Below, piece by piece: positions 3,661 to 63,035 of a DNA stretch of 64,000 nucleotides (positions within the stretch are counted from its first letter, which is position 1; every line of letters begins with the position of its first letter). A program made the position numbers and the translations under genes. The notes below the pieces were generated by a model. The model did no database searches. It saw only the letters and a program-made list of their open reading frames with translations, and was not told where the DNA came from. The stretch is from sequence record PP968062.1; one strand, written 5' to 3'. The stretch comes from Pseudomonas phage HPP-Temi.

Positions 3661-4182
3661 TTAAACGGTTGCAGGTTTTGGTTTGACGGACTTGATGATC
3701 TCGCTGTACGACATCCAGTTATAGTTGGTGAAGAACTCCGGATGATTTGCTTTCAGCCATTTAACGAACTTATCCAGTTCGACTTCCCGTACGATACCAT
3801 TACCATAGAGATCTCGACGGCATGGATGATCTTCGGGTATTTCAGCGCAATGTGCCTCGTGCATTTGTCGCAACAACTCCAACAAATTTTCTTTACGTCC
3901 AATCATGAACGTAAACACATGCACTGGATCCCAACCGGTCATAGTGGTCCATACGGATTTATTAGCTGTCAGGTTTTCGAGTTTAAGCTCTTTCACCTTA
4001 TCCATCAGTAGTTTACATTGAACAAGCATCCCTCGTAGCTGTTCTTCCGGATCTCCGTCAATAATCCAGTGAGAACCGCCAGGCATATAACCGCAGAAGG
4101 TGTAAAGGCTATCACGCAAATATGCATGACGACCGCGTTCCAAAGCTTCTGCTTTCTTTTGTTCCTTAGATTTAGCCATTTT
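3661..4182 (-). CDS. hypothetical protein ~173 aa
   Basis: ORF track 3661..4239; start moved downstream of upstream stop (MKMAKSKEQ). Confidence 0.5.
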   Translation of the reverse strand, partial: KMAKSKEQKKAEALERGRHAYLRDSLYTFCGYMPGGSHWIIDGDPEEQLRGMLVQCKLLMDKVKELKLENLTANKSVWTTMTGWDPVHVFTFMIGRKENLLELLRQMHEAHCAEIPEDHPCRRDLYGNGIVREVELDKFVKWLKANHPEFFTNYNWMSYSEIIKSVKPKPATV

Positions 4183-4615
4183 CATAACCCTCGTCAGATT
4201 TGTAAGTGCGTTCTGGACTGAACACGTACTTGATGTCATGAATCACCGCTGTGATATAGACCTGATATTCTTTTGAAATAGACTCCATCTGTTCTACAGT
4301 CACTTCTTCCAAAGACGAGATCTTGGCATAAGCGTCATCAAGAAGATCATCATCATTGCCGAACAACCATCCCCGGTCAGAGGAACTGATAACCGGATAA
4401 TGAACCCAGGTACGGATATAAGGCTTACCCAGATGGATCACCTGAATGACCTCATTGTGGGATTGACCTTTCTTTTTGTTCACGTACTTGACATGACGCT
4501 CAATGTACGCATAGATACCCGAGCAATGCTCGTTGGCGTAAGCGGCCAATTCGAAACCGTACTTATGGCCTACGTTGTTGGGATCACGACGCCATTGCGG
4601 AATGAAAGCTTTCAT
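4172..4615 (-). CDS. hypothetical protein ~147 aa
   Basis: ORF track 4172..4630; ATGA overlap with upstream stop. Confidence 0.5.
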   Translation of the reverse strand: MKAFIPQWRRDPNNVGHKYGFELAAYANEHCSGIYAYIERHVKYVNKKKGQSHNEVIQVIHLGKPYIRTWVHYPVISSSDRGWLFGNDDDLLDDAYAKISSLEEVTVEQMESISKEYQVYITAVIHDIKYVFSPERTYKSDEGYENG

Positions 4616-5127
4616 TTGAATTCGTACCATCCATAAATAGTCAGATCGAGGTCTTTCCAGAACAACTGGGAAAACTCCTCGAAGGTATCGGCATTCTCCA
4701 GTTCGTCCAACTCGACGTCAGGAGATTTAACGAAGCTCATCCCCGTCTCGGGATAAACGTCAGTGATGATGCGAGTGGTGTTGTCCGAATAGTCACGAGT
4801 GAACGTGGTTACGGAACGATCGGTGAACAGAGCGACACTGAGATCACCTTTATGGTTACCCAATTCGTCAGTTACAGCGTCGATGATATCGACATCGATA
4901 ATGTTGCCGCCGAAGTCGAGGATCTTCAGACGGTTACGAACCAGCTCACTGGCTACCCAATCATCGGATTTGATGACCAGGAGTTTAGCTACCTCGCCAT
5001 TGTAGGTAACCAGATCATCCGCACCTTCTACACGGAGGCTCCAGTCGAAACGGATGTCGGTATCCCCGACACCTTTGTCATGAGCGATGATGACGCCTTG
5101 TTTGCCATAAACTACGATGTGCTTCAT
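4612..5127 (-). CDS. hypothetical protein 171 aa
   Basis: ORF track. Confidence 0.6.
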   Translation of the reverse strand: MKHIVVYGKQGVIIAHDKGVGDTDIRFDWSLRVEGADDLVTYNGEVAKLLVIKSDDWVASELVRNRLKILDFGGNIIDVDIIDAVTDELGNHKGDLSVALFTDRSVTTFTRDYSDNTTRIITDVYPETGMSFVKSPDVELDELENADTFEEFSQLFWKDLDLTIYGWYEFK

Positions 5128-9375: not shown

Positions 9376-9414
9376 CATGTTTGTAATATAGTGTTCTAAA
9401 CACTTTGAATGCAA
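9376..9414 (-). promoter_or_regulatory. promoter-like element, family A variant: TTGCAT-18nt-TATATT with an embedded AGTGTT-TAG-AACACT palindrome
   Basis: minus strand reads TTGCATTCAAAGTGTTTAGAACACTATATTACAAACATG; sits between a terminator and the gene start. Confidence 0.5.
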
Positions 9415-9424
9415 CGGTATAAAC

Positions 9425-9443
9425 TCTCCCACTAGGGGAGAGC
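9425..9443 (-). terminator. stem-loop terminator (CTCTCCC / GGGAGAG) followed by TTTAT
   Basis: 7-bp stem, 5-nt loop, U-rich tail on minus strand. Confidence 0.55.
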
Positions 9444-12816: not shown

Positions 12817-13209
12817 TTACACTCCCGATTGGTAGCGCTTGTAGCGAACCCACTGCCCATTACATGGACGTTGGAATTCGAGGGTATCCATCATGTGGTA
12901 ACCGAAGTGCTCGATGATCCACAGAGCCACTTGCTTGGAACGCTTCATGCCCATTTCACAATGGACAACGATGTTCTCGCCGTTACAGGCTTTCACCCAT
13001 TCGATGAGTTCAGCATTCCGAGCATTGACCGGGTTATCGAACCCATCGATCTCGAAGACGTTCACACCGGGATCGATACCGTAGTTATCCTTACGGTTAT
13101 ACTCGATACTGATCAGGTTGGTGCCGGGATTAACTGCGCAACCAACTGCGCGCGGCACATGGATGACGCCTTTACGTTTACGAGTAACCTTTACGGATAC
13201 GATGCTCAT
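12817..13209 (-). CDS. cysteine phosphatase of the dual-specificity/PTP superfamily (HCX5R P-loop)
   Basis: VHCEMGMKRS = HC-x5-R(S) signature; 130 aa. Confidence 0.65.
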   Translation of the reverse strand: MSIVSVKVTRKRKGVIHVPRAVGCAVNPGTNLISIEYNRKDNYGIDPGVNVFEIDGFDNPVNARNAELIEWVKACNGENIVVHCEMGMKRSKQVALWIIEHFGYHMMDTLEFQRPCNGQWVRYKRYQSGV

Positions 13210-13442
13210 TTGAAGTCTACCTCACGCAGTGCACGAATCAGTTTGTCTTTCGCTTCAACGCTGGAGCTCCAGCATTCCACGATGTCGTAACCATGCTCAT
13301 CTTTCTTCATGAAAGCGCGAGCATCTTGTCCCAGCTTGCCAGCAACGTGCATGTTGTAGGCCTGGAAACGCTCGGGGGTCATGGTGACCGGATCCAGGTG
13401 GATAGTGGTAACCATGTCGGACAGATTGTTATAAGTCATCAT
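13206..13442 (-). CDS. hypothetical protein ~78 aa
   Basis: ORF track 13206..13490 trimmed to MMTYNN start with AAGGAAA RBS. Confidence 0.5.
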   Translation of the reverse strand: MMTYNNLSDMVTTIHLDPVTMTPERFQAYNMHVAGKLGQDARAFMKKDEHGYDIVECWSSSVEAKDKLIRALREVDFK

Positions 13443-13455
13443 TTTGATTTCCTTT

Positions 13456-14070
13456 TTAAACAGTGATATCGCGTTTGTGAACACTAACAAAGGTCAGTTT
13501 GCTAGTGCGTTTGAGGATGTGTGCAGAGAGTACCTTCGAACCGTTGAAAACGTCGGTATCGAGGATCTCTTCTGGTGTTGCTTCCGATGCAGCAGCGCCG
13601 AGATACGCATTGAGGTGATTCGCCTGGAACCAGCTGCGAATGATCATCGCGTCTTCGATGTCTTCAACGAAGCGGATTTTAGTCGGATCTTCACTGGGAG
13701 CCAGGAAGAGACTCTTGCGGCCGTTCTCGAATTCGAGATAGAACTCTTCATGGAGATCGGTCTCACTGATCTCTCTTTCCTCTTCCAGGATTTCATGGTA
13801 TTTAACGCAACCATGTACCAGACCCAGATCGACTTCCGAATCACCATACCAAGTTGCCTTGGCAAGCTCCAGGAATTCCAGAGCATCGTTGAACAGCTTG
13901 AACACTACGCCGTAACGACGAGCATCCTCGACGCTGAAGTCTTTGGCCAGTTGGTTATGTACGATGAACACCGGACGGCTGTAGATGAAGTCTACATACA
14001 GACGGAGCTCACACGCAACGGGAATACCATCAACAGTATTCTCCAGGATCACTTCACGCAGTTGTTTCAT
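13456..14070 (-). CDS. hypothetical protein 204 aa
   Basis: ORF track. Confidence 0.6.
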   Translation of the reverse strand: MKQLREVILENTVDGIPVACELRLYVDFIYSRPVFIVHNQLAKDFSVEDARRYGVVFKLFNDALEFLELAKATWYGDSEVDLGLVHGCVKYHEILEEEREISETDLHEEFYLEFENGRKSLFLAPSEDPTKIRFVEDIEDAMIIRSWFQANHLNAYLGAAASEATPEEILDTDVFNGSKVLSAHILKRTSKLTFVSVHKRDITV

Positions 14071-14101
14071 TGTATCTTCCTTTTTACACGGGGTTGAATA
14101 T

Positions 14102-14142
14102 CACATTTGTAATATAGGGTTTTAAAAGGTTTAAATATAACC
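14102..14142 (-). promoter_or_regulatory. promoter-like element family A, copy 1 (degenerate palindrome + TATATTACAAATGTG)
   Basis: minus strand reads GGTTATATTTAAACCTTTTAAAACCCTATATTACAAATGTG. Confidence 0.45.
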
Positions 14143-14152
14143 TTCTATTTAT

Positions 14153-14194
14153 CACAGTTGTAATATAGGCTTTTAATGCCTTTAAATGTAAAAG
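14153..14194 (-). promoter_or_regulatory. promoter-like element family A, copy 2 (tandem with copy 1)
   Basis: minus strand reads CATTTAAAGGCATTAAAAGCCTATATTACAACTGTG. Confidence 0.45.
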
Positions 14195-14213
14195 AAAAAA
14201 AAAACGGCATAAC

Positions 14214-14233
14214 GCCTCTCCCGAAGGAGAGGC
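14214..14233 (-). terminator. terminator GCCUCUCC-UUCG-GGAGAGGC followed by U10
   Basis: 8-bp stem with CGAA loop, then a run of ten A on plus strand (U-tract on minus). Confidence 0.75.
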
Positions 14234-14241
14234 TATTATGT

Positions 14242-14625
14242 TTACTCGCCTTGACCTTCACCACCGGTTTCCGGAGGAGTGGTCTCGCCGCCTTCGCCAC
14301 CAGTACCGGGTTCTTCCGGACCTTCGGGCTCAGTGGTTTGTTCTTCAACGTAGAAGCTGACGAACATTTCGTTGCCGTTCTTGATTTCAACGGAAACGGA
14401 TTTCCAACCGGCGTCTTCGATGGCTTTCTTCAGAGCAGCTACAGAAGTATCAGCGATGTTCACGCCACGGAAGTGACGGTGTACAAAGTGTACTTTCTGC
14501 TCGGCGTCGTTCAGGAAGTCAACGGTACCCGGCAGGGACAGGTATTCGTTGATAGCATCTTCGTACTGAGCAATCTCAGCTTCGGACATTGCCTTGCCGG
14601 CTTCGTCCAGGGAATAAATCGCCAT
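14242..14625 (-). CDS. hypothetical protein ~127 aa with acidic G/E/P-rich C-terminal tail
   Basis: ORF track 14242..14679 (GTG start there) trimmed to ATG with GGAGAA RBS. Confidence 0.5.
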   Translation of the reverse strand: MAIYSLDEAGKAMSEAEIAQYEDAINEYLSLPGTVDFLNDAEQKVHFVHRHFRGVNIADTSVAALKKAIEDAGWKSVSVEIKNGNEMFVSFYVEEQTTEPEGPEEPGTGGEGGETTPPETGGEGQGE

Positions 14626-14675
14626 TGGTGATTCTCCATAGTCATGAACAGCGGTATTGCTGCACATAACATCGG

Positions 14676-15101
14676 TCACTTCACCGGAATAATTCCAAAT
14701 GCCAATTCCGTACGTACGCCAGTTTGCGCTTCAGTTACTTGTTCAACCTTAACACTCCATTCGGGTTCACCCACTAAGGTAACCTCTAGAATAGAATGCG
14801 TTTCCTCGTTAGCCATGTGATAGGCGGATGCTTCAGAGTGATAAATTTCGACATCGCGATCCCGACAGCAAAGAAACACAGACGACTGAGTCTCAGGGAA
14901 ATCTAGATAGACTTGTTTGAAGTCAGCGTATGCAATCATGTTGTTGCCTACGTAGTGCGTCATCCCAGCTAGGATCACGCGACGCTTTTCTTTCTTCTTA
15001 GGTTTCTCTTTCTTAGCTTCTTCGCCACGAGGTAGAGATAACCATACCAACCCAGCTAAGATCAGCAGGATAATGGCCGAGGTAGGAATAGTAAAAGGCA
15101 T
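14676..15101 (-). CDS. membrane protein 141 aa (N-terminal TM then K-rich segment)
   Basis: ORF track; AIILLILAGLVWLSL. Confidence 0.55.
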   Translation of the reverse strand: MPFTIPTSAIILLILAGLVWLSLPRGEEAKKEKPKKKEKRRVILAGMTHYVGNNMIAYADFKQVYLDFPETQSSVFLCCRDRDVEIYHSEASAYHMANEETHSILEVTLVGEPEWSVKVEQVTEAQTGVRTELAFGIIPVK

Positions 15102-15132
15102 GACACCACCTAAAAATTAAAAATGGCAGAAA

Positions 15133-15152
15133 GCTGTCCCCGAAGGGACAGC
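15133..15152 (-). terminator. terminator GCUGUCCC-UUCG-GGGACAGC
   Basis: perfect 8-bp stem with CGAA loop. Confidence 0.6.
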
Positions 15153-15162
15153 CTTATGTCGA

Positions 15163-15480
15163 TCAGTTGTTGACGGTAGCCCAGTAGGAAGCAGCCAGGT
15201 CAATCTCCAGAGCGTTCGGAGCAACTTCAACGGAAGTGGATTCACCAGCTTCGTTGACGATGAACTTCGGAGTCAGATGGAAGTCGTTCTGGATACCAGC
15301 CATGGTACCAGCGATAGCACGATCGATGAAGGTAGCTTGTACCTTAACAGCTTCGGCTTCGCGGTCCAGACCTTTCAGCAGATCTTCTTTTAGGTCTTCG
15401 CAATACTTGATTACGGAAGCGCCAGCAGCGGTCAGGTTTTCGTGTTGTTCGATTACGTTTTCTACAGGTTCCATTTTCAT
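15163..15480 (-). CDS. hypothetical protein 105 aa
   Basis: ORF track. Confidence 0.6.
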   Translation of the reverse strand: MKMEPVENVIEQHENLTAAGASVIKYCEDLKEDLLKGLDREAEAVKVQATFIDRAIAGTMAGIQNDFHLTPKFIVNEAGESTSVEVAPNALEIDLAASYWATVNN

Positions 15481-15507
15481 TTCCTAATTTTGAGAGAGAG
15501 GGTATAA

Positions 15508-15529
15508 CTGCGCACCCGAAGATGCGCAG
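15508..15529 (-). terminator. stem-loop (CTGCGCA / TGCGCAG, 8-nt loop containing CGAA)
   Basis: 7-bp stem immediately downstream of the SPFH gene stop. Confidence 0.45.
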
Positions 15530-15535
15530 CTTGTA

Positions 15536-16402
15536 TTACTTACCGAATACGCGATTGCTCAGACCTTGGGTACCCATTGCTTCGTAGGGTACGAAGATAG
15601 CACTACCGGTATTACCCAGATTGGTAGACATCTTCTCTTGTACTTCCAGAGCACGATAGGCCAGCAGCTTATCACTGATACCGGCAGCGACGATCTGGTT
15701 CTGGTCACGCAGAGTACGAGCTTTGGTCAGTTCAACTTCACGATCAGCTTCAGCCAGTTTCAGAGCGTTAGTGCGCTTGGTCATTTCAATGGCTTGCTGG
15801 TTGTTCTCGGTCTGAATAGCCAGTTCACGTTCAGCTTGTTTCTCGATAGCGTCGGTGATCACCTTCGGATATTCCAGTGCACCCAGGGTGACGTTGGAAA
15901 CTTCCAGAGGCGAATTCTTCATGGCGTCTTGCAGACGGGTCAGTAGATCAGCAGAGATCTTGTCGAAGTTGGCAGGGACTTCTTCAACTTTGTACTTGTT
16001 CAGTACGGAACGTGCAGTAGAACTTACAACGTCACGACCATAGATACCGTAGACCTGGTCCAGCGATACCATGTTGTCCACGACGGTGATCGAGTTGAAC
16101 ATGGCGTTGATGACTTGCTCGTTACCAGCAACGCGAGTACGGAAGCTCACGGTGAAGGTCAGGTCGAGTTTGTCAGCCATCTTCACGGTCAGACGTTCGT
16201 TCTTGGTCTGTACAGAACCGTCCAGCAGGATCAGCTGGTCACGACCGTAGACAGTCAGCTTACCGGGTTCGAGAACTTCCGGAGAGTAACCGTTAACAGT
16301 CAGCAGCTTACCTTTGTGCGCTGGAGGAATTACCTCAAACGAACAGCCGGTTACAGCCAGGGCGATCAGCAGAGCGAAGACGAGTTGGAAGTACTTTTTC
16401 AT
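15536..16402 (-). CDS. lipoprotein with SPFH/band-7 (prohibitin/HflK-like) domain
   Basis: signal peptide with lipobox LAVTGC; C-terminal half has SPFH-type heptad region (EKQAERELAIQTENNQQAIEMTKRTNALKLAEADREVELTKA). Confidence 0.6.
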   Translation of the reverse strand: MKKYFQLVFALLIALAVTGCSFEVIPPAHKGKLLTVNGYSPEVLEPGKLTVYGRDQLILLDGSVQTKNERLTVKMADKLDLTFTVSFRTRVAGNEQVINAMFNSITVVDNMVSLDQVYGIYGRDVVSSTARSVLNKYKVEEVPANFDKISADLLTRLQDAMKNSPLEVSNVTLGALEYPKVITDAIEKQAERELAIQTENNQQAIEMTKRTNALKLAEADREVELTKARTLRDQNQIVAAGISDKLLAYRALEVQEKMSTNLGNTGSAIFVPYEAMGTQGLSNRVFGK

Positions 16403-16749
16403 TGCGCGTTTTCCTGTTTGGATTTCTTGAGTTGTTCGTCGAAGGCGGATTGTGCACTCGACACATTATCCTGAGCCTTGGTAACTTTTTCCGGAATGGT
16501 CGACTGATCCACTACAGGAGCATCGAACCGAGTTACCAGAGCTTGTTTCACCGGAGTGGTGATCTGGAGCAGGGAGGATTGGAAGACGCCTACAATCGCC
16601 AGAGCGATCAGGAAGCGCTTACCACCACCCAGTTGTTTTACCCATTCTTTCTTGGAGAACAGAACGAAGCCTGCCGCAAGAACAGAGATCAGAGTCAGGA
16701 TAGCGTACAGAAACGGCGAACCGATAATAGCGATGTTCAGGTTGTGCAT
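16399..16749 (-). CDS. membrane protein 116 aa (two TM)
   Basis: ORF track; hydrophobic segments. Confidence 0.55.
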   Translation of the reverse strand: MHNLNIAIIGSPFLYAILTLISVLAAGFVLFSKKEWVKQLGGGKRFLIALAIVGVFQSSLLQITTPVKQALVTRFDAPVVDQSTIPEKVTKAQDNVSSAQSAFDEQLKKSKQENAQ

Positions 16750-16756
16750 GATTACC

Positions 16757-17101
16757 TCAGTTGTTGATATGGTCGAAGTATTGATCGGCTAAGTTCTTTC
16801 TTTCGTCAGAGAGAAGACTTACACCCACGGAGCGATCACTTGCGGATCGGCTTCTTTTCAGCTTCGAATCGTAGTTACGCGAGCAACGATAGTTACCGGT
16901 ACTCAGGAACCGAAGGGCCAGAAGGATACCTTCCGTAATTCCTTCATCGAACGCGTCTTGTTGCGCAGCGTCTTGGTAACGGAGCACGTTTTCACGGCTG
17001 AACGTCTCATGAGTATCTGCAAGCTCTTCGAGGAATAGACCATTTGCTCTTAACCACTCTTTATTTGGTGTTAAAGGTTTTTGCGTTTTCTCGGCACTCA
17101 C
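16757..17101 (-). CDS. hypothetical protein 114 aa
   Basis: ORF track. Confidence 0.55.
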   Translation of the reverse strand: MSAEKTQKPLTPNKEWLRANGLFLEELADTHETFSRENVLRYQDAAQQDAFDEGITEGILLALRFLSTGNYRCSRNYDSKLKRSRSASDRSVGVSLLSDERKNLADQYFDHINN

Positions 17102-17351
17102 GAATAGCCTCCGGAGTTAATTGTAGACGACCGTTCTGAGTTACCTGATTGACACAGTCTTCGTAGTGTTTGACCATAGCCAAACTAGCAGCCGCTTCAC
17201 GATCGAGCCTTGCTTGTTTATCGCTATTGCCCTGGATGATACCACCAATGATCCCCATGATCGCAAGAAGGATCATCGCTTCGATAATGGTGATCTCTGG
17301 CAACCAGCCCCAGATACGAAAACGTTTCCTTCTTTTGGTAGCGAGGTTCAT
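17061..17351 (-). CDS. small membrane protein whose N-terminal TM resembles a type IV pilin/pseudopilin helix
   Basis: EITIIEAMILLAIMGIIGGI resembles pilin FTLIELMIVIAIIGILAAI; periplasmic helical C-terminus. Confidence 0.45.
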   Translation of the reverse strand: MNLATKRRKRFRIWGWLPEITIIEAMILLAIMGIIGGIIQGNSDKQARLDREAAASLAMVKHYEDCVNQVTQNGRLQLTPEAIRECRENAKTFNTK

Positions 17352-17686
17352 TAGGTGTTTACCCCTGCGAATAGATCGACCGTGAGATCAGGATACCAAG
17401 GCGTGCTAGTCAGCTGGATCTTACCTTCGCTGTCATACACGTCCGCACCGGTTATCATGATCTGCCCATGAGTCTGGATGGCGTCGATTGCCTCTTTTGC
17501 GGAGAGTCTAGCAGTACGCATAAACAGGTCAGCCATATCGCGACCCTCGCCATTATAGTAGAGATCCTTGAATCCCTCATTAATGACGCTATCTACACGA
17601 TCACGAATTTCTTCCTGTAAGAGTTTAGTCTTGTTAGTTTGAAACTCGTTGGTGTAATACGGGTATTCTACTTCCGCTTCTTCCAT
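17351..17686 (-). CDS. hypothetical protein 111 aa, C-terminal ...GVNT tail family
   Basis: ORF track; ends FAGVNT. Confidence 0.55.
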   Translation of the reverse strand: MEEAEVEYPYYTNEFQTNKTKLLQEEIRDRVDSVINEGFKDLYYNGEGRDMADLFMRTARLSAKEAIDAIQTHGQIMITGADVYDSEGKIQLTSTPWYPDLTVDLFAGVNT

Positions 17687-17883
17687 ACGTTCACCTCAGT
17701 GATCGAACTACGTTTCATCCGATGTCTCAATGACGACGATGCTTTCTCTGTTGCCTCTGTCCAACCACCGCCATAGACGGTGTGGAATGCATTGATCTGT
17801 GTGTGCAGGTCATGGGTAGCCATAACCTTACCAAGTCCACGAGACTCGTAGTACTCGATCAAAGCGTTTGCTGGATCACTCAT
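17668..17883 (-). CDS. hypothetical protein 71 aa
   Basis: ORF track. Confidence 0.45.
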   Translation of the reverse strand: MSDPANALIEYYESRGLGKVMATHDLHTQINAFHTVYGGGWTEATEKASSSLRHRMKRSSITEVNVWKKRK

Positions 17884-17908
17884 GAGTTTACCCTGTCGTA
17901 GTGTCTAG

Positions 17909-18148
17909 TCACGAGTTGACGTCTTCATACCAGGACCTAGTCAGCTCCTGTTTAAGTTCAACGACAGCACCCATACCGCCAGTCAGGACCGCTGTTTCGA
18001 CGGCCAAGGCGACAGCGGATAGAGCATGATCGACGGCGTTTTCTATGGTTTCTTCACGTTTGGCATCGACACGAATGGCATTGATACCGATAAGTAACTG
18101 GGTGCGAGCTTTGATGTTAGCTTCGACGATTTCGGTTTGTTCCGACAT
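17909..18148 (-). CDS. hypothetical protein 79 aa, C-terminal ...EDVNS tail family
   Basis: ORF track. Confidence 0.55.
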   Translation of the reverse strand: MSEQTEIVEANIKARTQLLIGINAIRVDAKREETIENAVDHALSAVALAVETAVLTGGMGAVVELKQELTRSWYEDVNS

Positions 18149-18239
18149 TTCTAATATTTCCTATTTAGAGAAGTTTACACCTATCAGAGCTAAGCTGGTG
18201 ATGAAGTTACGGATCATGTTTCGTTGAAAATAGGGTGAT

Positions 18240-18581
18240 TCACGAGTTTACTCTATCGTAGTGATACGAATAGATAGAACTCGCAACATGACTAGCAGAA
18301 CCTGCATTTAAAGAATGGTTCTCAACCATCTTCACCGCACTCTGTGTGATGTCACCGACTTTGTAAGCAAACTCAGTCAGCCACTCTCGCACAGACCCTT
18401 CAGCTATACCAGTCTTGTCGACTACGTCAACTGTTGCTTTATCCAGAAGATCGTCCAACATGGCAACACCGACATTGATGATTGCTTTCTCAAGGTCGAT
18501 AACCACGGCAGAAAACTCCCCACTCACTCGGAGCAGGGAGTCGAGGTCAGGATCGTTCCAATCTAACGAAGGTTCCTTCAT
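18240..18581 (-). CDS. hypothetical acidic protein 113 aa, C-terminal ...DRVNS tail family
   Basis: ORF track. Confidence 0.55.
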   Translation of the reverse strand: MKEPSLDWNDPDLDSLLRVSGEFSAVVIDLEKAIINVGVAMLDDLLDKATVDVVDKTGIAEGSVREWLTEFAYKVGDITQSAVKMVENHSLNAGSASHVASSIYSYHYDRVNS

Positions 18582-18871
18582 TAGGTATTCACGGATTCGA
18601 AGTAAGTCTCGGACAGGCCAGACACACAGGTCAGGTTAACGCCGGGATCTTCCTCGTGGTCGGTGGAACCAGAGATGATGTCTTCGTAGTGATTCTCTAC
18701 CGCATCGAGAACGCCACCGACGGTATAGTCAATAGCAGCAGTAGCTGCACCAACCAGAACATCGTGACCATCATTGGTGTCATCTTTCGACAACTCCTTG
18801 ATTTTGTTCTTGAACAGCTCGATAGCTTCGTTACGTACTTCTACAGCAGCGCCAATCAGTTGAGTAGCCAT
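18581..18871 (-). CDS. hypothetical acidic protein 96 aa, C-terminal ...ESVNT tail family
   Basis: ORF track. Confidence 0.55.
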   Translation of the reverse strand: MATQLIGAAVEVRNEAIELFKNKIKELSKDDTNDGHDVLVGAATAAIDYTVGGVLDAVENHYEDIISGSTDHEEDPGVNLTCVSGLSETYFESVNT

Positions 18872-19371
18872 TAAGCTTCTCCTACAAGTTGTTTGGTTTT
18901 GAGACGCAGTTTGTGTTGCCGGTATTTCAGGATGGAGGATGCCTTGACCTTGCCTTCAATGATCCGCTTGGTTTCTTCGGTGGTAAAGTCAGCATCGATC
19001 TGATAGATGAAATGTTTCTCGTAGAAATGTTGGAATCCATTGAAACCATAATAACCACGAAGCAACTTCCCACCAGTCAGCCGACGCAGTTCCTTGATCA
19101 TTCCAGAACCAATGCCTTTCTTGCGTTGATCTGGCTTAACGTAGAACATGCAGATGTTCTGGCGACACACTTTGTACAAGATGTAACCAACCATCTCTCC
19201 GTTCGTATCATCAATCGCCATCACCACACGGTAACGACTCACGGTACCATTTTTCAGAATGGACTTGACGTAACGACAGAGCGAACCGGAATGTTCATAA
19301 AGTTTATTCTCAACTATCAAACGTAGAGTCATCCTCACGAGGACGGGTGTTTCGATGATACTGTAGTTCAT
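18871..19371 (-). CDS. GNAT-family N-acetyltransferase
   Basis: VGYILYKV...MFYVKPDQRKKGIGSGMIKEL matches GNAT motifs A/B. Confidence 0.7.
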   Translation of the reverse strand: MNYSIIETPVLVRMTLRLIVENKLYEHSGSLCRYVKSILKNGTVSRYRVVMAIDDTNGEMVGYILYKVCRQNICMFYVKPDQRKKGIGSGMIKELRRLTGGKLLRGYYGFNGFQHFYEKHFIYQIDADFTTEETKRIIEGKVKASSILKYRQHKLRLKTKQLVGEA

Positions 19372-19739
19372 CAGCTGTTTACCAACTTGAAGTAATCGAC
19401 AACACCTTCCGAGATATCGATCGCTTCGACATCTTCAGCGGCGAAAGGAATCCAGTTACCACCCGCTTCTACTGCCTCAGCTTTCTCTTCCTCACCTACC
19501 TTTGGGGAAAGAGTAAAACCCGGACAGTCCGGATGACCACCTTCAATGATACCCAGAACACCAGAGATGATTTCATCTGCCAGCGCTGCATTCGGGTTAA
19601 CGTAGGCTTCGAACTTACCCTGCTCAGCTTCAGAGAGGATTTCATCACGTTTACCTTTTACCGCACCAACAAAGAGATCACGTACTTCACTGAAAGTGGC
19701 AGCACGTGGTTCACCGTTACCTTCGAAATATACTGTCAT
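19371..19739 (-). CDS. hypothetical protein 122 aa, C-terminal ...KLVNS tail family
   Basis: ORF track. Confidence 0.55.
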   Translation of the reverse strand: MTVYFEGNGEPRAATFSEVRDLFVGAVKGKRDEILSEAEQGKFEAYVNPNAALADEIISGVLGIIEGGHPDCPGFTLSPKVGEEEKAEAVEAGGNWIPFAAEDVEAIDISEGVVDYFKLVNS

Positions 19740-20158
19740 GGCAGTTCAACCGCTATAGTTAGATCTTCTTTGAATTGCTCGAACTCCTCATCGGTTAACT
19801 GACGAGAAGAGGTCATGCAACGACCGGGATATTGATACCAGGTAATACAGACATCTTTCCAGATCAATGCAACTTCATCCAACCCTGGAAGGCGGAATGT
19901 CTCAAGTACGTCAGTCTTCAGGGTGGGTCCACCAGGATACGGGTTCAGTCGTTCGTGATCAACTTTACTGATCTCTTTGAGAAGATCATAGAGAGGACCA
20001 TTGGAGACAATAACCCAATTGGAGGCCAGGGCAATATCCTCTTCAGGAATGCTTGCCCAGTGCTCGCGCTCGCAGTCGTCCATATCCTCATCAAGCGGTT
20101 TCCCACCGATCAAGGAATAGGCATGTTGTGCAACTTCAACCAGCCTCATGTTTTTCAT
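19736..20158 (-). CDS. hypothetical protein 140 aa
   Basis: ORF track. Confidence 0.6.
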   Translation of the reverse strand: MKNMRLVEVAQHAYSLIGGKPLDEDMDDCEREHWASIPEEDIALASNWVIVSNGPLYDLLKEISKVDHERLNPYPGGPTLKTDVLETFRLPGLDEVALIWKDVCITWYQYPGRCMTSSRQLTDEEFEQFKEDLTIAVELP

Positions 20159-21462: not shown

Positions 21463-21539
21463 GACTGCGAATACGCTTTGCGATATCGGGATTGGAAGCG
21501 AGAATAGACTTGCCGCCGTTTACGAGAACTTGAAGACGG

Positions 21540-21710
21540 TCACCGGAACGACTGGACATTTGCAGCTACCTCTTGACAGGAGAGTGGATATTTAATGCAT
21601 TGCTCAGCTTGCCGTTCAGCATGCTTCTTACTGTAGATACAGCCAATGATCATCAATGCAATTACTGAAATGATCATCAGCCAAATTGATTGTTTCCTCT
21701 TATGCGTCAT
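21540..21710 (-). CDS. possible small membrane protein (~56 aa, MTHKRKQSIWLMIISVIALMIIGCIY...)
   Basis: ORF track 21540..21851 runs through the terminator/promoter; ATG with AAGGAA RBS 20 nt downstream of the promoter element. Confidence 0.4.
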   Translation of the reverse strand: MTHKRKQSIWLMIISVIALMIIGCIYSKKHAERQAEQCIKYPLSCQEVAANVQSFR

Positions 21711-21737
21711 TTGCATGTTCCTTGTGAATTTAGCTAA

Positions 21738-21772
21738 TACGTAATATAGATTTGAAAAAAATTTTAGTGTAC
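21738..21772 (-). promoter_or_regulatory. promoter-like element family B
   Basis: minus strand reads CTAAAATTTTTTTCAAATCTATATTACGTA immediately downstream of a terminator. Confidence 0.45.
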
Positions 21773-23077: not shown

Positions 23078-23107
23078 CTTCTTAACCTCTTTGGTGTGTA
23101 TATCAAG

Positions 23108-23147
23108 TTTGTAATATAGCCTTTAAAAGGCTTTAAATGTTAAATTG
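23108..23147 (-). promoter_or_regulatory. promoter-like element family A (perfect palindrome AGCCTTTTAAAGGCT + TATATTACAAACTTG)
   Basis: minus strand reads CATTTAAAGCCTTTTAAAGGCTATATTACAAACTTG. Confidence 0.5.
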
Positions 23148-24607: not shown

Positions 24608-24648
24608 CACTTACATGATGTAGATCTAAGATAATTTTTAACAAAAAG
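24608..24648 (-). promoter_or_regulatory. promoter-like element family B
   Basis: minus strand reads GTTAAAAATTATCTTAGATCTACATCATGTAAG after a terminator. Confidence 0.45.
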
Positions 24649-25916: not shown

Positions 25917-25953
25917 CATATTTGTAATGTAGGCTTTTAAAACGTTTAAATAC
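25917..25953 (-). promoter_or_regulatory. promoter-like element family A variant (TACATTACAAATATG)
   Basis: minus strand reads GTATTTAAACGTTTTAAAAGCCTACATTACAAATATG. Confidence 0.45.
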
Positions 25954-31606: not shown

Positions 31607-31635
31607 TGTAATTACCTCGTTGTGGATGCAAATAA

Positions 31636-31670
31636 GTAATATAGATCTGAAAAAAATTTTATTGACATAA
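31636..31670 (-). promoter_or_regulatory. promoter-like element family B
   Basis: minus strand reads GTCAATAAAATTTTTTTCAGATCTATATTACTT immediately after a terminator. Confidence 0.45.
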
Positions 31671-38224: not shown

Positions 38225-38252
38225 TATTTTCTCCAAAGGAAATAAGGAAATA

Positions 38253-38274
38253 AAGCCTCCCCGAAGGGAGGCTT
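38253..38274 (-). terminator. terminator AAGCCUCCC-UUCG-GGGAGGCUU
   Basis: 9-bp stem with CGAA loop, TTTATTTCC flank. Confidence 0.7.
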
Positions 38275-38282
38275 TTATGTTG

Positions 38283-38543
38283 CTAACGATGCCCTTCGTG
38301 AGTATCGAACTCCAGATCCAATACCACGTTGGTGAATTCCTCCAGCGTACCTTCATCGAAGATACGAGGTTCACTGTCGTCACGATGCATCATACCGACA
38401 GGAGTCTGGTCCCGAAACACCATTAACAAGTCGTGTTTTACCACGACATGGTGATCTTCCCCTACGGAAAGATCTTGGATACGCTGCCAGCGGCTGCGCA
38501 GTAAGCTGCAAGCGACCCATACGGATTTCAAACGTTCAGCCAT
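38283..38543 (-). CDS. hypothetical protein 86 aa
   Basis: ORF track. Confidence 0.55.
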   Translation of the reverse strand: MAERLKSVWVACSLLRSRWQRIQDLSVGEDHHVVVKHDLLMVFRDQTPVGMMHRDDSEPRIFDEGTLEEFTNVVLDLEFDTHEGHR

Positions 38544-38574
38544 TGTATTGCCCTCTTGGTTATTGAATTCATGT

Positions 38575-38606
38575 TGGTGATATAGGGCTAAGATACGTTA
38601 GAATAT
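38575..38606 (-). promoter_or_regulatory. promoter-like element, family B variant (TATCTTAGCCCTATATCACC)
   Basis: follows a terminator, precedes the gene at 38543. Confidence 0.35.
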
Positions 38607-44221: not shown

Positions 44222-44255
44222 TGTATTTTCCTCGTTGGTGTTGGTATGGCTTCAA

Positions 44256-44294
44256 ACACATGATGTAGATCTGAGATATTTTTTAGCGTATGCT
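44256..44294 (-). promoter_or_regulatory. promoter-like element family B
   Basis: minus strand reads GCTAAAAAATATCTCAGATCTACATCATGTG after a terminator. Confidence 0.45.
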
Positions 44295-51556: not shown

Positions 51557-51594
51557 TACATTTTGATAATGTAGATCTAAGAAAAAATAAAAAG
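51557..51594 (-). promoter_or_regulatory. promoter-like element family B
   Basis: minus strand reads TTTTTATTTTTTCTTAGATCTACATTATCAAAATG after a terminator. Confidence 0.45.
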
Positions 51595-51603
51595 AAAGCG
51601 AAT

Positions 51604-51633: not shown

Positions 51634-52095
51634 TTAGCGCTTGACGCGGAACTTGGAGTCGTAGAGTGCTTGGAACTCTTTGATCTTTTCCCGTTGGGTC
51701 GGAGTCTCAGTCGCGTTGCTGAAGAACTCGTCAGCGAATTCTTTCTTCTTGCGAACTTCACAACCGAACAGTTCCAGACCGATCATGTCCAACTGGTTCT
51801 TGAAATGACCCAGTTCACTCATGCCGGTTTGATCCGGCTTGGAGACTTCCTTCACGCCAGCAGGCTTGATGCGGTAGTCTTGTACTTCAGCGTAACGGAT
51901 ATCCTTGGAAGGAACCGGACGAGGACCAGCTTTCTTTTTCTTCACTCGCTTGGGGATCACCGGCATGGGAAGATCCGTTTTCGGAGCCTTCGCCGGTTCG
52001 ACCTTTTGTTTTTCTTGCTTGGGTGCCGGTACAGTTGCGATCGGACCCTGAGCCGCGATGAGGTCTTTGAGCGAGTTGAATTTTACGCGTGCCAT
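51634..52095 (-). CDS. basic Lys/Pro-rich protein 153 aa (possible nucleic-acid-binding)
   Basis: ORF track; AGGAGAA RBS. Confidence 0.6.
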   Translation of the reverse strand: MARVKFNSLKDLIAAQGPIATVPAPKQEKQKVEPAKAPKTDLPMPVIPKRVKKKKAGPRPVPSKDIRYAEVQDYRIKPAGVKEVSKPDQTGMSELGHFKNQLDMIGLELFGCEVRKKKEFADEFFSNATETPTQREKIKEFQALYDSKFRVKR

Positions 52096-52126: not shown

Positions 52127-52168
52127 CACATTTGTAATATAGCCTTTAAAAGGCTTTAAATGTAAACC
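52127..52168 (-). promoter_or_regulatory. promoter-like element family A (perfect palindrome AGCCTTTTAAAGGCT + TATATTACAAATGTG)
   Basis: minus strand reads GTTTACATTTAAAGCCTTTTAAAGGCTATATTACAAATGTG, ~30 nt upstream of the ATG. Confidence 0.5.
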
Positions 52169-59183: not shown

Positions 59184-59600
59184 TTAAGCAGTTTTGGGGA
59201 TACGACCGATGCTGATGCTACGGAGCATGCCATAAACACGTCCATTAGCCAGATCCATTTTACCATTACAGAAACGATCGGTCTTGACTTCCCAACCGAT
59301 ACCTTGAAGGAACTTAGCAACAGCTGCACTACGAGAAATGCCTGCTTCACAATGAACGATTAGAGTTTCACCATCGGGAACCTTATCAATGAAGGTAAGG
59401 ATCTTATCGGCATGAACGTAATCGAACATCTGATAGCGATTGTCCACGTAGTCTTCGACATCATCAAAGATCAACACGAGGATGTCTTTATGTTCACGAA
59501 CGAACTTCACCTCTTGTCCAGGACAACGGATAGAGATGATGTAGCTTTCTTCGGTTAGAGCCTGAGCAGCTAAACGAGAATAGAACTTAACCTTCTTCAT
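59184..59600 (-). CDS. cysteine phosphatase, dual-specificity-phosphatase-like (HCX5R)
   Basis: LIVHCEAGISRSAAV signature; ORF track 59184..59681 trimmed to MKKVKF start (ATGA overlap). Confidence 0.6.
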   Translation of the reverse strand: MKKVKFYSRLAAQALTEESYIISIRCPGQEVKFVREHKDILVLIFDDVEDYVDNRYQMFDYVHADKILTFIDKVPDGETLIVHCEAGISRSAAVAKFLQGIGWEVKTDRFCNGKMDLANGRVYGMLRSISIGRIPKTA

Positions 59601-60403
59601 ACGTCTACCTTTCGATGTAACATCAGACGAGTCCAGGAAGCCGAACCCTGACCAGTAACAGCTGTGGATACACCGCTCCAACCTTGCTCACTGAGCTCAG
59701 CGTGGAGCTCATGCATTACCTCGACGTGGATAACGCCATTAATACCGAACTCGTAAACCAGGTGTTGTTTCTTTTGACGGACAGCATGTTGACCAGCAGC
59801 TCGCACCTTCTCGGCGTTCTGCCATTCGTACGTACGAAGCATAGTCAGAACATCGTCTTTGGTGAGGATGGTGAATCCTTCAAAGAAGTCAGGTCTGATA
59901 CCTTTATTCAGCTGCTTGCTAACGGAGACATCGACTGCCTCGCTAGCCGGTATATCTAGGATAGGAGAACTGGGTTTAATGCCTTCTTCAGCGACTCGGA
60001 GAATAGAAGGATGTACATAACCATCAGTAATGGTTCCTTCTTTCTTGACTACAAAACCAGCTCGGCGTGAATCATCGTAACGTAGTTCACACGGTATGAG
60101 TTCCATCACCCATTCACCAACCCAAGCTGGGTAATCCATGTCACTGGATACAACCGCTGACTGACTTGTACGCATGATGATCTGATTGTAAGCAAGTTTG
60201 ACAAAGAAGCGAATATCGTCTTTGTCACTGTTGAACAGGAATGCCTTTCGATGGTTACGGGTAAGGTTTACACCACTCAGATCGTGAGTGACATAGAAAC
60301 GTTGTCGCTCACTGTCATCTAGAATTTGACTGAAGCAGATCACATAGAAAGCGTTGGGGTCTAGGCCTTTTAGAAGGTCAAGACCCTTTTCATTGAAACT
60401 CAT
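59597..60403 (-). CDS. hypothetical protein 268 aa (first gene of the leftward array)
   Basis: ORF track; AAAGGAGAA RBS. Confidence 0.6.
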   Translation of the reverse strand: MSFNEKGLDLLKGLDPNAFYVICFSQILDDSERQRFYVTHDLSGVNLTRNHRKAFLFNSDKDDIRFFVKLAYNQIIMRTSQSAVVSSDMDYPAWVGEWVMELIPCELRYDDSRRAGFVVKKEGTITDGYVHPSILRVAEEGIKPSSPILDIPASEAVDVSVSKQLNKGIRPDFFEGFTILTKDDVLTMLRTYEWQNAEKVRAAGQHAVRQKKQHLVYEFGINGVIHVEVMHELHAELSEQGWSGVSTAVTGQGSASWTRLMLHRKVDV

Positions 60404-60435
60404 TTTTATTCTCCTTTAGAAGAAAGATGTTCACT

Positions 60436-60472
60436 CAGGTAATATAGATGTAAGATATTTTTTATTGGGCAA
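60436..60472 (-). promoter_or_regulatory. promoter-like element family B (no terminator upstream; start of leftward transcription unit)
   Basis: minus strand reads CCAATAAAAAATATCTTACATCTATATTACCTG. Confidence 0.45.
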
Positions 60473-60508: not shown

Positions 60509-60655
60509 ATGTTTGAGATAATGCTAAACATCGGAACCGGTGGGAAGGACCTTAACTTTCCAGATTCAGGTCCAGGTCCCAAAAAAATTAATACAATGCG
60601 GGCAAGTAATAACGCTATTGTCTGGCGTCCTATTCTCGAAGTTGTTGGTAGTTAA
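60509..60655 (+). CDS. possible small plus-strand ORF (48 aa, MFEIMLNIGTGGKDLNFPDSGPGPKK...)
   Basis: AGAGGA RBS 9 nt upstream; stop followed 8 nt later by a perfect hairpin. Confidence 0.3.
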   Translation: MFEIMLNIGTGGKDLNFPDSGPGPKKINTMRASNNAIVWRPILEVVGS

Positions 60656-60663
60656 CGACATAA

Positions 60664-60682
60664 GCCCGGCTCAAGGCCGGGC
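60664..60682. other. perfect 7-bp GC hairpin GCCCGGC-TCAAG-GCCGGGC in the divergent intergenic region (possible bidirectional terminator or small-RNA 3' end)
   Basis: seen directly; weak U-tracts on both strands. Confidence 0.4.
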
Positions 60683-60763
60683 GTTATGCCTGCTTGGATT
60701 AGATAGTCCTAGCATCGTCGTCAAGGCACCGTAGTTAGATACTCGTCTTTGCTCCCGCAAATA

Positions 60764-60784: not shown

Positions 60785-60830
60785 AATCGGCTGGATCACC
60801 CCCTTAAAGTGCAGCGCTATGCGCGACTGC

Positions 60831-60855
60831 CTTGACTATATCATTACAACAAGTG
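60831..60855 (+). promoter_or_regulatory. plus-strand promoter-like element TTGACTATATCATTACAACAAGTG upstream of the helicase gene
   Basis: contains TATATCATTACAA, related to the minus-strand TATATTACAAA core; ~65 nt upstream of the ATG. Confidence 0.35.
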
Positions 60856-60920: not shown

Positions 60921-63035
60921 ATGTTAGACTCATTCCGCTCTCTGTTTGGTGGACTAACAGTTAAGGAAACTGAAACAGAGATCATCATCTCTGGAGTGAG
61001 AGGTTTTGATATTGTCCGTGATATCAGTAAGCACTGGAAGACATCCAAGATTACAACTAACCTTTTCAACTCGATCAACAGAAACTCTCTGAGCTTCTAT
61101 AAGTTCTTTGCTCCTGAAGTAATGTACATGTTGGAGAACATCGTCTACTATCGTTCTCGTTACACTTCGGTGAAAATGATTGCAGCGATCAAAGATGCTC
61201 TACTCCAAAACACTTGGTTAGCCTCTACTAAAGTAGTAGATAAGAACTCCGTACCAGGACGTTTGAACTTTGCTAATCTGACTCGACTCAAATTCGATCC
61301 GAAACCGTATCAATTAGAGTATTTCAAGAACTATACCTATCGACTAGATCAATACAATCTAAATGGCGATTTAATTGCCGCGGCGGCCGGTACGGGTAAG
61401 ACATATCTTACTTCAGCTATTGCTGAGATGCTTGATGCAGAACTCATTGTTGTAATGTGTCCTAAGAATGCTCTGGATCTTGTCTGGTTAGATTCTCTAA
61501 AAGAGATGTTTCATAAGCCGCAAACAGTTTGGCACACCTTCGAACCCAATATGTCTTATAAAGGGCAACGTTGGATTGTTTGCCATTATGATGCAATGGA
61601 TAAAGTTGTAGAGCTTCTGAGAAATCGTAATGTGGTTGGGACTAAACGTACTGTGACGATTCTTGATGAATCACACAACATGAACGACCCGAACTCAACA
61701 CGGACTAAACTTTATCAACTGATCGTTAAGATGGTTGGTTCTCGTAACAACTTGCTGGCTTCCGGTACTCCGGTTAAAGCTCTGGGCGTAGAACTGATCA
61801 ACCTGCTTCGTATTGTGGATCCTCTGTTCACTCCTCAAGTAGAAGAACGTTTCCGGAAGATGTATGGTAAAGAGGCTTCTAAAGGTCTCGACATTATCCG
61901 ACATCGTCTGGGTCTGGTTTCTTACAAAGTAGAGAAACAAGAACTCGATCTGCAACCTCCGATCATGCGTCCTTATCCCATCAAGATTCCGAATGGAGAT
62001 GACTTCACTCTTCCTACTATCCGCAAGGTGATGGAGGAATTCATTCGTGAACGCTGGGCTTATTATAAGAAGCGGAGACCTGAAGATGACAAGTTCTGGA
62101 ACGAACTCTGTAACCTCCACAGAAAGACCCTCCGAACCTCAGAGCAAGAACGTGCCTTCAAGTCCTACTTGGATTTGGTCAAGTATGTTCAACAGATCCC
62201 TGATCCGCGCTTTGCAGGAGAGGAAATCAAAGCAACGAACCAATACGAGAAATTAGTATTTGGTCCGTCGTTGCCGAAACATTTGATTCATCAATTCCGT
62301 GATGTCAAATCGATTATCAAGTATACCAACCTGAAGATCCAAGGTGAATGCCTAGGTCGTGTACTGGGTGGTAAACGAATCGAATGTCACGTTGCAATGG
62401 TTCCGTATGTCGACTGGGTAGGGATTACTGAATCCACTCACAAGAAGACAATCATGTTCACTAGCTTTGTAGAGGCGGTAGAGCTCGCTGACGCACATTG
62501 CGTTAAGTTGGGTATGAAGCCATTAGCTGTGTACGGAAAGACCACCAACGAGCTTGCAGGCATCGTTAAACGGTTTGATTCCAGTAAGGAACTGAATCCA
62601 CTCAACGCTACTTATGCTTCTCTGTCCACTGCTGTCCGTCTAACCATGGCTGACACACTAATCCTGCTGAATAGTCCATTCCGTGCTTACATTCTGGAGC
62701 AGGCTATTTCCCGTGCTTATCGCTTGGGTCAGGATTCTCAAGTTGTTGTTTACCAGTGCACACTCGATACTGGAGAGATCCCTAACATTTCTACTCGTTC
62801 GGCTGATATCCTTAAATGGAGTCAGGATCAGGTAGAGGCTATCATGGGTATCAAGTCTCCGTTTGAAATCGGTGAGGCAATGGAAGACTATGGTGATCAG
62901 ACAGAGTTTGACGAGAACAAAGTAATGCACCGCGTTCTTCAGAAAGCGTTTGAACAATTCGATATTGAGATTTCGTTGGCTGACTTCGAGATCCCACCTA
63001 AACCCAAATCTAATGTTCCCGCTTATCTGCGGTGA
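60921..63035 (+). CDS. SNF2-family DNA-dependent ATPase/helicase
   Basis: Walker A AAAGTGKT, DExH box ILDESHNM, motif VI EQAISRAYRLGQ; 704 aa; AAGGA RBS. Confidence 0.8.
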   Translation: MLDSFRSLFGGLTVKETETEIIISGVRGFDIVRDISKHWKTSKITTNLFNSINRNSLSFYKFFAPEVMYMLENIVYYRSRYTSVKMIAAIKDALLQNTWLASTKVVDKNSVPGRLNFANLTRLKFDPKPYQLEYFKNYTYRLDQYNLNGDLIAAAAGTGKTYLTSAIAEMLDAELIVVMCPKNALDLVWLDSLKEMFHKPQTVWHTFEPNMSYKGQRWIVCHYDAMDKVVELLRNRNVVGTKRTVTILDESHNMNDPNSTRTKLYQLIVKMVGSRNNLLASGTPVKALGVELINLLRIVDPLFTPQVEERFRKMYGKEASKGLDIIRHRLGLVSYKVEKQELDLQPPIMRPYPIKIPNGDDFTLPTIRKVMEEFIRERWAYYKKRRPEDDKFWNELCNLHRKTLRTSEQERAFKSYLDLVKYVQQIPDPRFAGEEIKATNQYEKLVFGPSLPKHLIHQFRDVKSIIKYTNLKIQGECLGRVLGGKRIECHVAMVPYVDWVGITESTHKKTIMFTSFVEAVELADAHCVKLGMKPLAVYGKTTNELAGIVKRFDSSKELNPLNATYASLSTAVRLTMADTLILLNSPFRAYILEQAISRAYRLGQDSQVVVYQCTLDTGEIPNISTRSADILKWSQDQVEAIMGIKSPFEIGEAMEDYGDQTEFDENKVMHRVLQKAFEQFDIEISLADFEIPPKPKSNVPAYLR

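Follow-up and report, generated by a model that had tools for sequence, protein, structure and literature searches.

Terminator-coupled, putative phiKZ-type early promoters in the jumbo Pseudomonas phage HPP-Temi

The DNA analysed here comprises 64,000 nucleotides (nt) of Pseudomonas phage HPP-Temi (sequence record PP968062.1), referred to below as the window; our subject is a short intergenic region within it, 14102-14233, in which a terminator hairpin is followed by two tandem copies of a motif that we read as a probable early promoter of the phiKZ type. Such motifs are read on the minus strand throughout the window, and on this strand the order of features is the stop codon of open reading frame (ORF) 14242..14679, the hairpin, promoter copy 1, promoter copy 2, and the Shine-Dalgarno sequence AAGGAAG ahead of the ATG (14070) that opens ORF 13456..14070.

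The hairpin at 14214-14233 folds as RNA with -20.8 kcal/mol (z = -5.8 against shuffles), and its stem can lengthen through the flanks CAUAAU/GUUAUG; downstream lie GTTATGCC and then a run of ten T (U10 in the transcript) at 14195-14204. The upstream promoter copy reads ACATTTAAAGGCATTAAAAGCC-TATATTAC-AACTGT-G and the downstream copy ATATTTAAACCTTTTAAAACCC-TATATTAC-AAATGT-G, with the core of the latter 51 bp beyond that of the former and its predicted start 32 nt ahead of the ATG. Scored with weight matrices, the two copies lean toward the A-type promoter model of phiKZ by +24.4 and +28.2 bits, respectively. The block of terminator and tandem promoters is ~97-100% identical in the relatives PA1C, BRkr, PS119XW, and phiHQ, compared with ~80% for the flanking coding DNA; the terminator is invariant in four relatives, and the core of the upstream copy is 100% conserved in the four phages just named. 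Conservation above the level of the flanking genes is consistent with purifying selection on the block. The tandem pair at 14102-14189 would give two starts for one gene, ORF 13456..14070.

The wider setting is that of a phiKZ-related jumbo phage with small, mostly hypothetical genes. When two parts of the window were compared with a phage collection by megablast, the matches were to giant Pseudomonas phages only: for most of the query, PA1C, phiHQ, HHBS36_1, BRkr, PS119XW, and phiLBG22 align at ~80-86% identity, and weak matches to phiKZ-like phages fall in conserved genes. None of the records in the collection is highly identical to the window over these queries, and three phiPA3 loci have no exact 200-mer in common with it. 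In the syntenic region of PA1C, many genes are labelled 'similar to PHIKZ2xx', and the long ORFs of the window lie nearly all on the minus strand; the assignment to the phiKZ-related jumbo phages follows from these three observations together. All seven of the closest relatives encode a homologue of gp178, a subunit of the phiKZ virion RNA polymerase (RNAP), with ~63% amino-acid identity to phiKZ. An Rfam search of the window returned no family.

The motif in 14102-14233 is one of a set (Table 1). A listing of every TAYATYAY in the window shows that the two promoter-like families described in the initial annotation, A and B, have a common core, CTATATTAC-N6-G, and differ in flanking sequence. 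The pattern TAYATYAY-N5-WG (TAYATYAYNNNNNWG) is matched 14 times, in each case on the minus strand, where 2.0 are expected; none of 100 shuffled sequences reaches 14. Taken with the terminator counts given below, this places the observation far beyond chance, and the promoter-like motifs and GC-rich terminators of the initial annotation are real. The TAYATYAY core is present at every one of the 14 sites and is exactly TATATTAC at eight; the dinucleotide W-G (T/A-G) stands at positions 6-7 after the core at all 14, the same spacing as in a published rule (PMC5312081), and start sites were predicted from it. The counts reported previously—six copies of A, and six of B with two degenerate variants—were recovered. 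Searched individually, the family A 15-mer TATATTACAAATGTG gives eight matches at three or fewer mismatches (1.95 expected), and the family B pattern gives nine (3.6 expected).

The 14 sites are placed exactly as would be expected of promoters. All are on the gene strand, and 12 or 13 are intergenic. Nine lie 25-48 nt past a strict TTCG-loop terminator, and a tenth (9383) lies past a hairpin with a CTAGT loop; at most sites the predicted start is followed after 18-35 nt by a start codon with a Shine-Dalgarno sequence, the distance rising to 83 nt at two. The A-type promoter at 52134 precedes a homologue of PHIKZ216, and the orthologue in phiKZ has an A-type promoter as well (at 220781), so that the type is kept in both phages. 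The degenerate site at 4244..4280 lies 5 nt ahead of the longest start of ORF 3661..4239. A further degenerate A-like core, AATATTAGAAATGTC, with three mismatches, is seen at 18144-18158 on the minus strand, where it overlaps the annotated start (18148) of ORF 17909..18148; it sits in a segment, 17903-18240, that has no PA1C alignment.

Table 1. Predicted promoters, terminators, and related elements discussed in the text (all positions refer to the window).
Feature	Coordinates	Strand	Core	Remarks
Intrinsic terminator hairpin GCCTCTCC-TTCG-GGAGAGGC (RNA: UUCG)	14214-14233	-		Predicted to end transcript of ORF 14242..14679
A-type promoter, upstream tandem copy	14153..14189	-	14160-14167 (TATATTAC)	TTTAAA 14181-14186; ATTAAAA 14171-14177; predicted start G 14153
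A-type promoter, downstream tandem copy	14102..14138	-	14109-14116	TTTAAA 14130-14135 and 14121-14126; predicted start G 14102
A-type promoter, perfect dyad AGCCTTTTAAAGGCT	52127..52163	-	52134	Predicted to drive ORF 51634..52095 (PHIKZ216 homologue)
A-type promoter, core TACATTAC	25917..25953	-	25924	42 nt past terminator 25974-25991
A-type promoter, perfect dyad	23104..23140	-	23111	44 nt past terminator 23163-23178
A-type promoter, variant dyad AGTGTTTAGAACACT	9376..9412	-	9383	CTAGT-loop terminator 9424-9442 upstream
B-type promoter (AATAAAAAATATCTTACATC-TATATTAC-N6-G)	60432..60468	-	60439	For ORF 59597..60403; divergent intergenic region
B-type promoter	51559..51595	-	51566	29 nt past terminator 51603-51626
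B-type promoter	44253..44289	-	44260	48 nt past terminator 44316-44335; downstream ORF starts GTG 44221
B-type promoter	31629..31665	-	31636	28 nt past terminator 31672-31689
B-type promoter	24608..24644	-	24615	41 nt past terminator 24664-24683
B-type promoter	21734..21770	-	21741	27 nt past terminator 21776-21797
Degenerate/hybrid promoter, core TATATCAC	38570..38606	-	38577	25 nt past terminator 38610-38627; predicted to drive 86-aa ORF 38283..38543
Degenerate B-like site, promoter status uncertain	4244..4280	-	4251	In/overlapping end of ORF 4172..4630; -8.1 bits
Terminator GCCTCCCTTCGGGGAGGCTTTAT, second copy	38252..38275	-		With 38610-38627 brackets a one-gene module
Conserved GC-rich hairpin block ending CTATATCATT	60790..60850	+		Upstream of helicase ORF 60921..63035

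The terminators are similarly one-sided. Under a strict definition (TTCG loop, at least six Watson-Crick pairs, T-rich tail) the minus strand has 17 and the plus strand none, where simulated sequence gives 0.01; relaxed criteria raise the number with a TTCG loop to ~21, with a few more that have other loops. The previously proposed set of about 25 hairpins with a UUCG loop was thus slightly too large in number, and the hairpins do have the anatomy of intrinsic terminators. Two minus-strand hairpins with other loops, GCCCAGC-TTAG-GCTGGGC at 26733-26750 and CTCTCCC-CTAGT-GGGAGAG at 9424-9442, are each followed by TTTAT; given such hairpins, the terminator set exceeds the UUCG-loop census.

The element itself has been described in phiKZ. 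The 'PhiKZ consensus early promoter' is listed as tatattaaaaaaaatttaagatgTATATTACAAATGTG in a supplementary table to a preprint from 2025 (PMC12676376); the last 15 bases of this sequence are the family A 15-mer TATATTACAAATGTG, and its upstream half resembles family B. Scanning the phiKZ genome with the window pattern yields 26 gene-sense intergenic sites—13 of the A-type, GTATTYAAAsmATTTTAAACAG-TATATTAC-AAATGT-G-ATA, and 13 of the B-type, ACTAAAAAAAnTTTRAGATC-TATATTAC-TAAnnT-G—and 28-32 early promoters have been reported for this phage (PMC8244752, PMC10914365). One of the B-type sites lies upstream of PHIKZ054, a gene with the early motif at its primary transcription start site, and one of the A-type sites lies upstream of PHIKZ260, which is shown as an example of a primary start site (PMC8244752). 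In every phiKZ-related phage, bioinformatic analysis can detect a highly conserved AT-rich motif, centred near -10 upstream of early operons, that is the early promoter and must be read by the injected virion RNAP (PMC7598289). Transcription starts 6 nt downstream of the element in phiKZ and phiR1-37, and the AR9 element is AAATATATATTAT-N6-G (PMC5312081); the early promoters of phiKZ and 201phi2-1 are conserved at -10, -20, and -30 (PMC11512511), which fits the anatomy found in the window. The terminators of phiKZ combine a conserved C/G-tract hairpin with a TTAT motif (PMC10914365), and the window hairpins match this description.

In the IMG/VR database, a scan with TTTAAANNNTATATTAC gave at least 120 matches, mostly chance ones in AT-rich viruses, and was uninformative; a scan with TATATTACAAATGTGA gave 34 loci, among which A-type upstream architecture occurs only in a phiPA3 contig (three sites) and a phiKZ-like PA7 contig. 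The 'middle' motif of phiKZ is TACT plus an A-repeat (PMC8244752); an equation of the B-type upstream half with this motif was dropped, as the regular-expression scan was too unspecific.

We conclude, with a probability of roughly 85%, that the cassettes consist of an intrinsic terminator and a phiKZ-type early promoter, most likely read by the injected virion RNAP. Directly observed are the motif, its strand bias and position, a conservation higher than that of the neighbouring genes, and the fact that the phiKZ element is identical. The initial annotation had suggested recognition by a phage-specified factor; this remains the best explanation of the motifs, and what had gone unrecognised is that they are the already described early promoter of the phiKZ type. 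Several points weigh against our conclusion. Recognition by the virion RNAP, the start at G, and early timing are inferred by homology from phiKZ, AR9, and phiR1-37, and the virion RNAP genes lie outside the 64-kb window and were seen in relatives. The link to phiKZ is drawn from later papers, from one supplementary table, and from the sequence of phiKZ itself; the original definition of the phiKZ early consensus is reportedly that of Ceyssens et al. (2014). There is overlap with coding sequence at site 4251, and the upstream half of 38577 is poor, so that not every copy need be active. Lastly, TATATT resembles the -10 hexamer of sigma-70 promoters and may allow some recognition by the host polymerase.

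The anatomy of the sites can be given relative to the predicted start. From about -33 to -27 the sequence is AT-rich, being TTYAAA in A and an A-tract in B; from about -23 to -18 there is TTTAAA in A and TYTYAG or TTTRAG in B, followed by three variable bases; from -14 to -7 there is the invariant core TAYATYAY, mostly TATATTAC, and then come six bases and G at +1 with T before it. A sites thus read TTYAAA-N4-TTTAAA-N3-core, and B sites an A-tract and TYTYAG-ATC-core; conservation at about -20 and -30 agrees with the published description (PMC11512511). On this anatomy, an injected multisubunit virion RNAP would recognise the core along with the AT-rich elements located one and two turns of the helix further upstream—the TTTAAA hexamers at -30 and -20 share the helical face of the core—and would do so without a host sigma factor and without new protein synthesis. 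Transcripts that arise immediately upon infection and depend on neither the host RNAP nor newly made protein are known from phiKZ and AR9. Transcription would start at the G six bases past the core and produce 5' untranslated regions (UTRs) of ~20-35 nt. The upstream cUUCGg hairpin and its U tract would stop the preceding unit, which would make each short gene block an insulated early transcription unit.

Use of the sites by the Pseudomonas RNAP as ordinary sigma-70 promoters, early in infection and with TATATT as the -10 hexamer, has some appeal—TATATT is one position from TATAAT, and the conserved G 8 nt downstream is within the normal start range—but we consider it highly improbable. The absence of a conserved -35 hexamer, noted previously, was borne out: no TTGACA-like hexamer stands 16-18 bp upstream, and a sigma-70 consensus scan of 13000-32500 called none of the seven A and B sites there, with no enrichment (16 found, 24.8 expected in shuffles). 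Moreover, conservation extends to AC at -8/-7, to -20/-30, and to +1, none of which sigma-70 requires, and phiKZ development is independent of the host RNAP (PMC7598289, PMC13282480). A different reading starts from the symmetry in family A, which had been taken for the operator of a dimeric regulator; here the dyad would bind a dimeric phage or host protein and regulate some of the early promoters. A perfect 15-nt palindrome, AGCCTTTTAAAGGCT, does exist, at 52141 and 23118 only, and so not in the tandem copies at the coordinates stated: these carry AGGCATTAAAAGCCT, which is imperfect, and AACCTTTTAAAACCC, which has no extended dyad. We define an extended dyad as three bases after the first hexamer that are complementary to the three bases abutting the core. 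By this definition it is present, around the second hexamer, in four of the six window A copies in three sequences (GCC/GGC twice, GGC/GCC, and GTG/CAC), and only one of 28 cross-pairings between flanks is complementary, which looks like compensatory maintenance. The same test, however, finds it in one of 13 sites in phiKZ, in none of three in phiPA3, and in none of five in register in PA1C (one PA1C site keeps it in a shifted register). The PA1C-group orthologue of 14167 has lost one arm, and the PA1C orthologue of 23118 has lost the whole dyad and has a degenerate core; in an operator, conservation should extend to the sequence and not stop at the symmetry. TTTAAA is self-complementary, so that inverted repeats arise automatically in A sites, and the A-type palindrome is mainly the repetition of this hexamer at -30 and -20, which accounts for the remaining symmetry. 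Hence an operator is unlikely, and the dyad is an embellishment that is real, though restricted to this lineage and poorly conserved. Extrusion of the dyad as a DNA hairpin recognised by the polymerase, as in the promoters of the coliphage N4 virion RNAP, is hardly credible: directly ahead of the core, AGCCTT-TTA-AAGGCT can fold into a stem of 6 bp and a loop of 3 nt, but the DNA hairpins are predicted to be weak (-1.4 to -4.8 kcal/mol, mostly within the shuffled range) and are missing from half of the A copies, from all B copies, and from phiKZ, and the phiKZ-type virion polymerase is multisubunit and unrelated to the N4 enzyme (PMC7598289).

The division into A and B raises a further question—whether there are two kinds of early promoter. 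The two are conserved flavours of one promoter and not two independent families; the core, spacing, and start site are common to both, so that they are not separate classes like early and late, and what stands of the original division is a pair of discrete flanking subtypes set apart by the -30 element, the triplet at -17 to -15, and the initiation region. Weight matrices built from phiKZ sites only, with the core excluded, give the window A sites scores of +16 to +30 bits and the B sites scores of -8 to -34; the sole exception is 38577, whose upstream half is degenerate and which leans toward A at +10.8 bits. This separation implies that both subtypes have been kept since the phiKZ and window lineages diverged. 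Functionally distinct sub-classes, differing in strength, timing, shut-off, or virion-borne specificity factors, are possible but doubtful. The clean split with one hybrid points that way, as do a conserved initiation region, AAATGTGAT, that is found in A and not in B, and the different phiKZ genes behind each type (gp054, gp068, and gp121-123, as opposed to small hypothetical genes). Against this, published analyses pool both into one consensus, early primary start sites are found with either type in phiKZ, and the upstream half has been swapped at one gene: PHIKZ246.1, the phiKZ orthologue of ORF 38283..38543 (69% amino-acid identity, conserved 5' UTR), lies behind an A-type promoter, which suggests that the types are interchangeable. 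A broader version—that two early classes, A with TTYAAA-N4-TTTAAA-N3-TATATTAC-AAATGT-G-AT and B with A-tract-TYTYAG-ATC-TAYATYAY-N6-G, have existed since the split of phiKZ and PA1C-like phages and are read or shut off differently (e.g., by virion-borne specificity factors or a repressor), with a binding-site dyad added in some A promoters of this lineage—strikes us as a little less probable again. By tblastn, the promoter-proximal genes have phiKZ orthologues in three of 13 cases, so that conservation of promoter type at orthologous genes can be judged at very few loci.

In phiKZ, the B-type sites precede gp054, which encodes the nuclear shell, gp068, and the gp121-123 block, and most of the A-type sites stand ahead of small hypothetical genes. 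The published consensus blends the two, its upstream half being that of B and its downstream half that of A. Our literature search found no paper that separates the A and B subtypes; their conservation as discrete subtypes between phiKZ and HPP-Temi, as judged from the two sequences, is a mildly new point.

One element that had been related to these promoters is of a different class. The plus-strand TATATCATTACAA at 60837, upstream of the helicase gene, is found at the end of a GC-rich block of ~55 nt, CTGGATCACCCCCTTAAAGTGCAG-hairpin-ACTGCCTTG-n-CTATATCATT, that hardly varies in PA1C or ahead of gp203, the orthologous helicase gene of phiKZ. The pairing of the inner stem is kept between GCGC-TAT-GCGC and TGCG-TTTTA-CGCA, and TACCCCWTAAGGA directly ahead of the helicase ATG is conserved as well. 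This element has no AT-rich elements at -20 and -30, and in the window and PA1C copies there is no G at the right distance past the core; set in a GC-rich hairpin, it belongs to neither family and is not an early promoter of the A or B kind. In the divergent intergenic region, a 64-aa ORF on the plus strand (60540..60734) overlaps a terminator-like hairpin of the same strand, CCCGGC-TCAA-GCCGGG, followed by CGTTATG (~60663-60690); at the place corresponding to 60540-60690, PA1C has ~4 kb of virion structural genes instead.

The cassettes may also bear on gene turnover, for which one indel relative to PA1C was considered. By blastn, window positions 38281-38605 are missing from PA1C; this segment holds a promoter and an 86-aa gene between two copies of GCCTCCCTTCGGGGAGGCTTTAT, and PA1C (locus L006, 21900-21960) has one copy and no gene. 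This is the outcome that recombination between repeated terminators would produce. Composite cassettes of this sort, the promoter-early stem-loop (PeSL) elements of T4-like phages, are known to mediate modular gene shuffling (PMC2839356, PMC4122927). As a separate observation, 13459-13793, 43707-44160, and other short segments have no PA1C alignment even with sensitive blastn, with flanks that are 78-94% identical; the early-gene region is a mosaic in which parts of genes or whole small genes have been replaced.

The promoter class, the polymerase, and the terminator motif have already been described, and the conceptual gain is small. What is provided here is a map of predicted early units—13-14 promoters with start sites and ~20 terminators in 64 kb—that carries the phiKZ early-promoter model over to the PA1C/PS119XW-like lineage and should be useful for annotation, and also for engineering, where such promoters could drive early payload expression as has been done with the phiKZ consensus. 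Repeated terminators could act as recombination substrates through which single early genes are gained or lost, as the one case above suggests. This, and the possible regulatory meaning of the A/B split, blended in the published consensus, may merit follow-up.

Among known systems, the phiKZ early promoters are the closest: they have the core TATATTAC, the N6-G spacing, AT-rich elements at -20 and -30, and two upstream flavours, and they are placed after conserved hairpin terminators, 20-40 nt ahead of early genes. The differences are of lineage and detail. HPP-Temi is PA1C/PS119XW-like (gp178 of those relatives is ~63% identical to that of phiKZ); the triplet abutting the core is GSC/CCC in HPP-Temi and CAG in phiKZ A-type sites; the -20 element of the B-type is TCTYAG in HPP-Temi and TTTRAG in phiKZ; and some A copies of HPP-Temi, where the starts are predicted, have the extended dyad. 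Conserved intrinsic terminators are likewise known from phiKZ and 201phi2-1, the phiKZ motif being BCCYCCCCHWWDGGGRRGGBYTTATKYYGT (PMC10914365, PMC11512511). Those of HPP-Temi are similar in having a GC-rich C/G-tract stem, a 4-nt loop, a TTTAT-type tail, and CATAA/TTATG-like flanks that can lengthen the stem; they are predicted terminators, and differ in their loop, which with few exceptions is UUCG with a C-G closing pair.

More distant parallels are found in other phages. Like the PeSL elements, the HPP-Temi cassettes of terminator and early promoter repeat between small early genes, and the module at 38281-38605 is bracketed by terminator repeats; the PeSL promoters, however, are sigma-70 early promoters, and those of HPP-Temi are of the virion-RNAP type. 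The early promoters of AR9 and phiR1-37 have an AT-rich, extended -10-like element ending in TATATTAY, a start at the G six bases downstream, and occasional tandem arrangements—as at 14102-14189. They are read by a virion multisubunit RNAP, as would be the case in HPP-Temi by homology; these phages differ in their hosts, in the uracil-containing DNA of AR9, and in that the elements at -20 and -30 are not shared with HPP-Temi.

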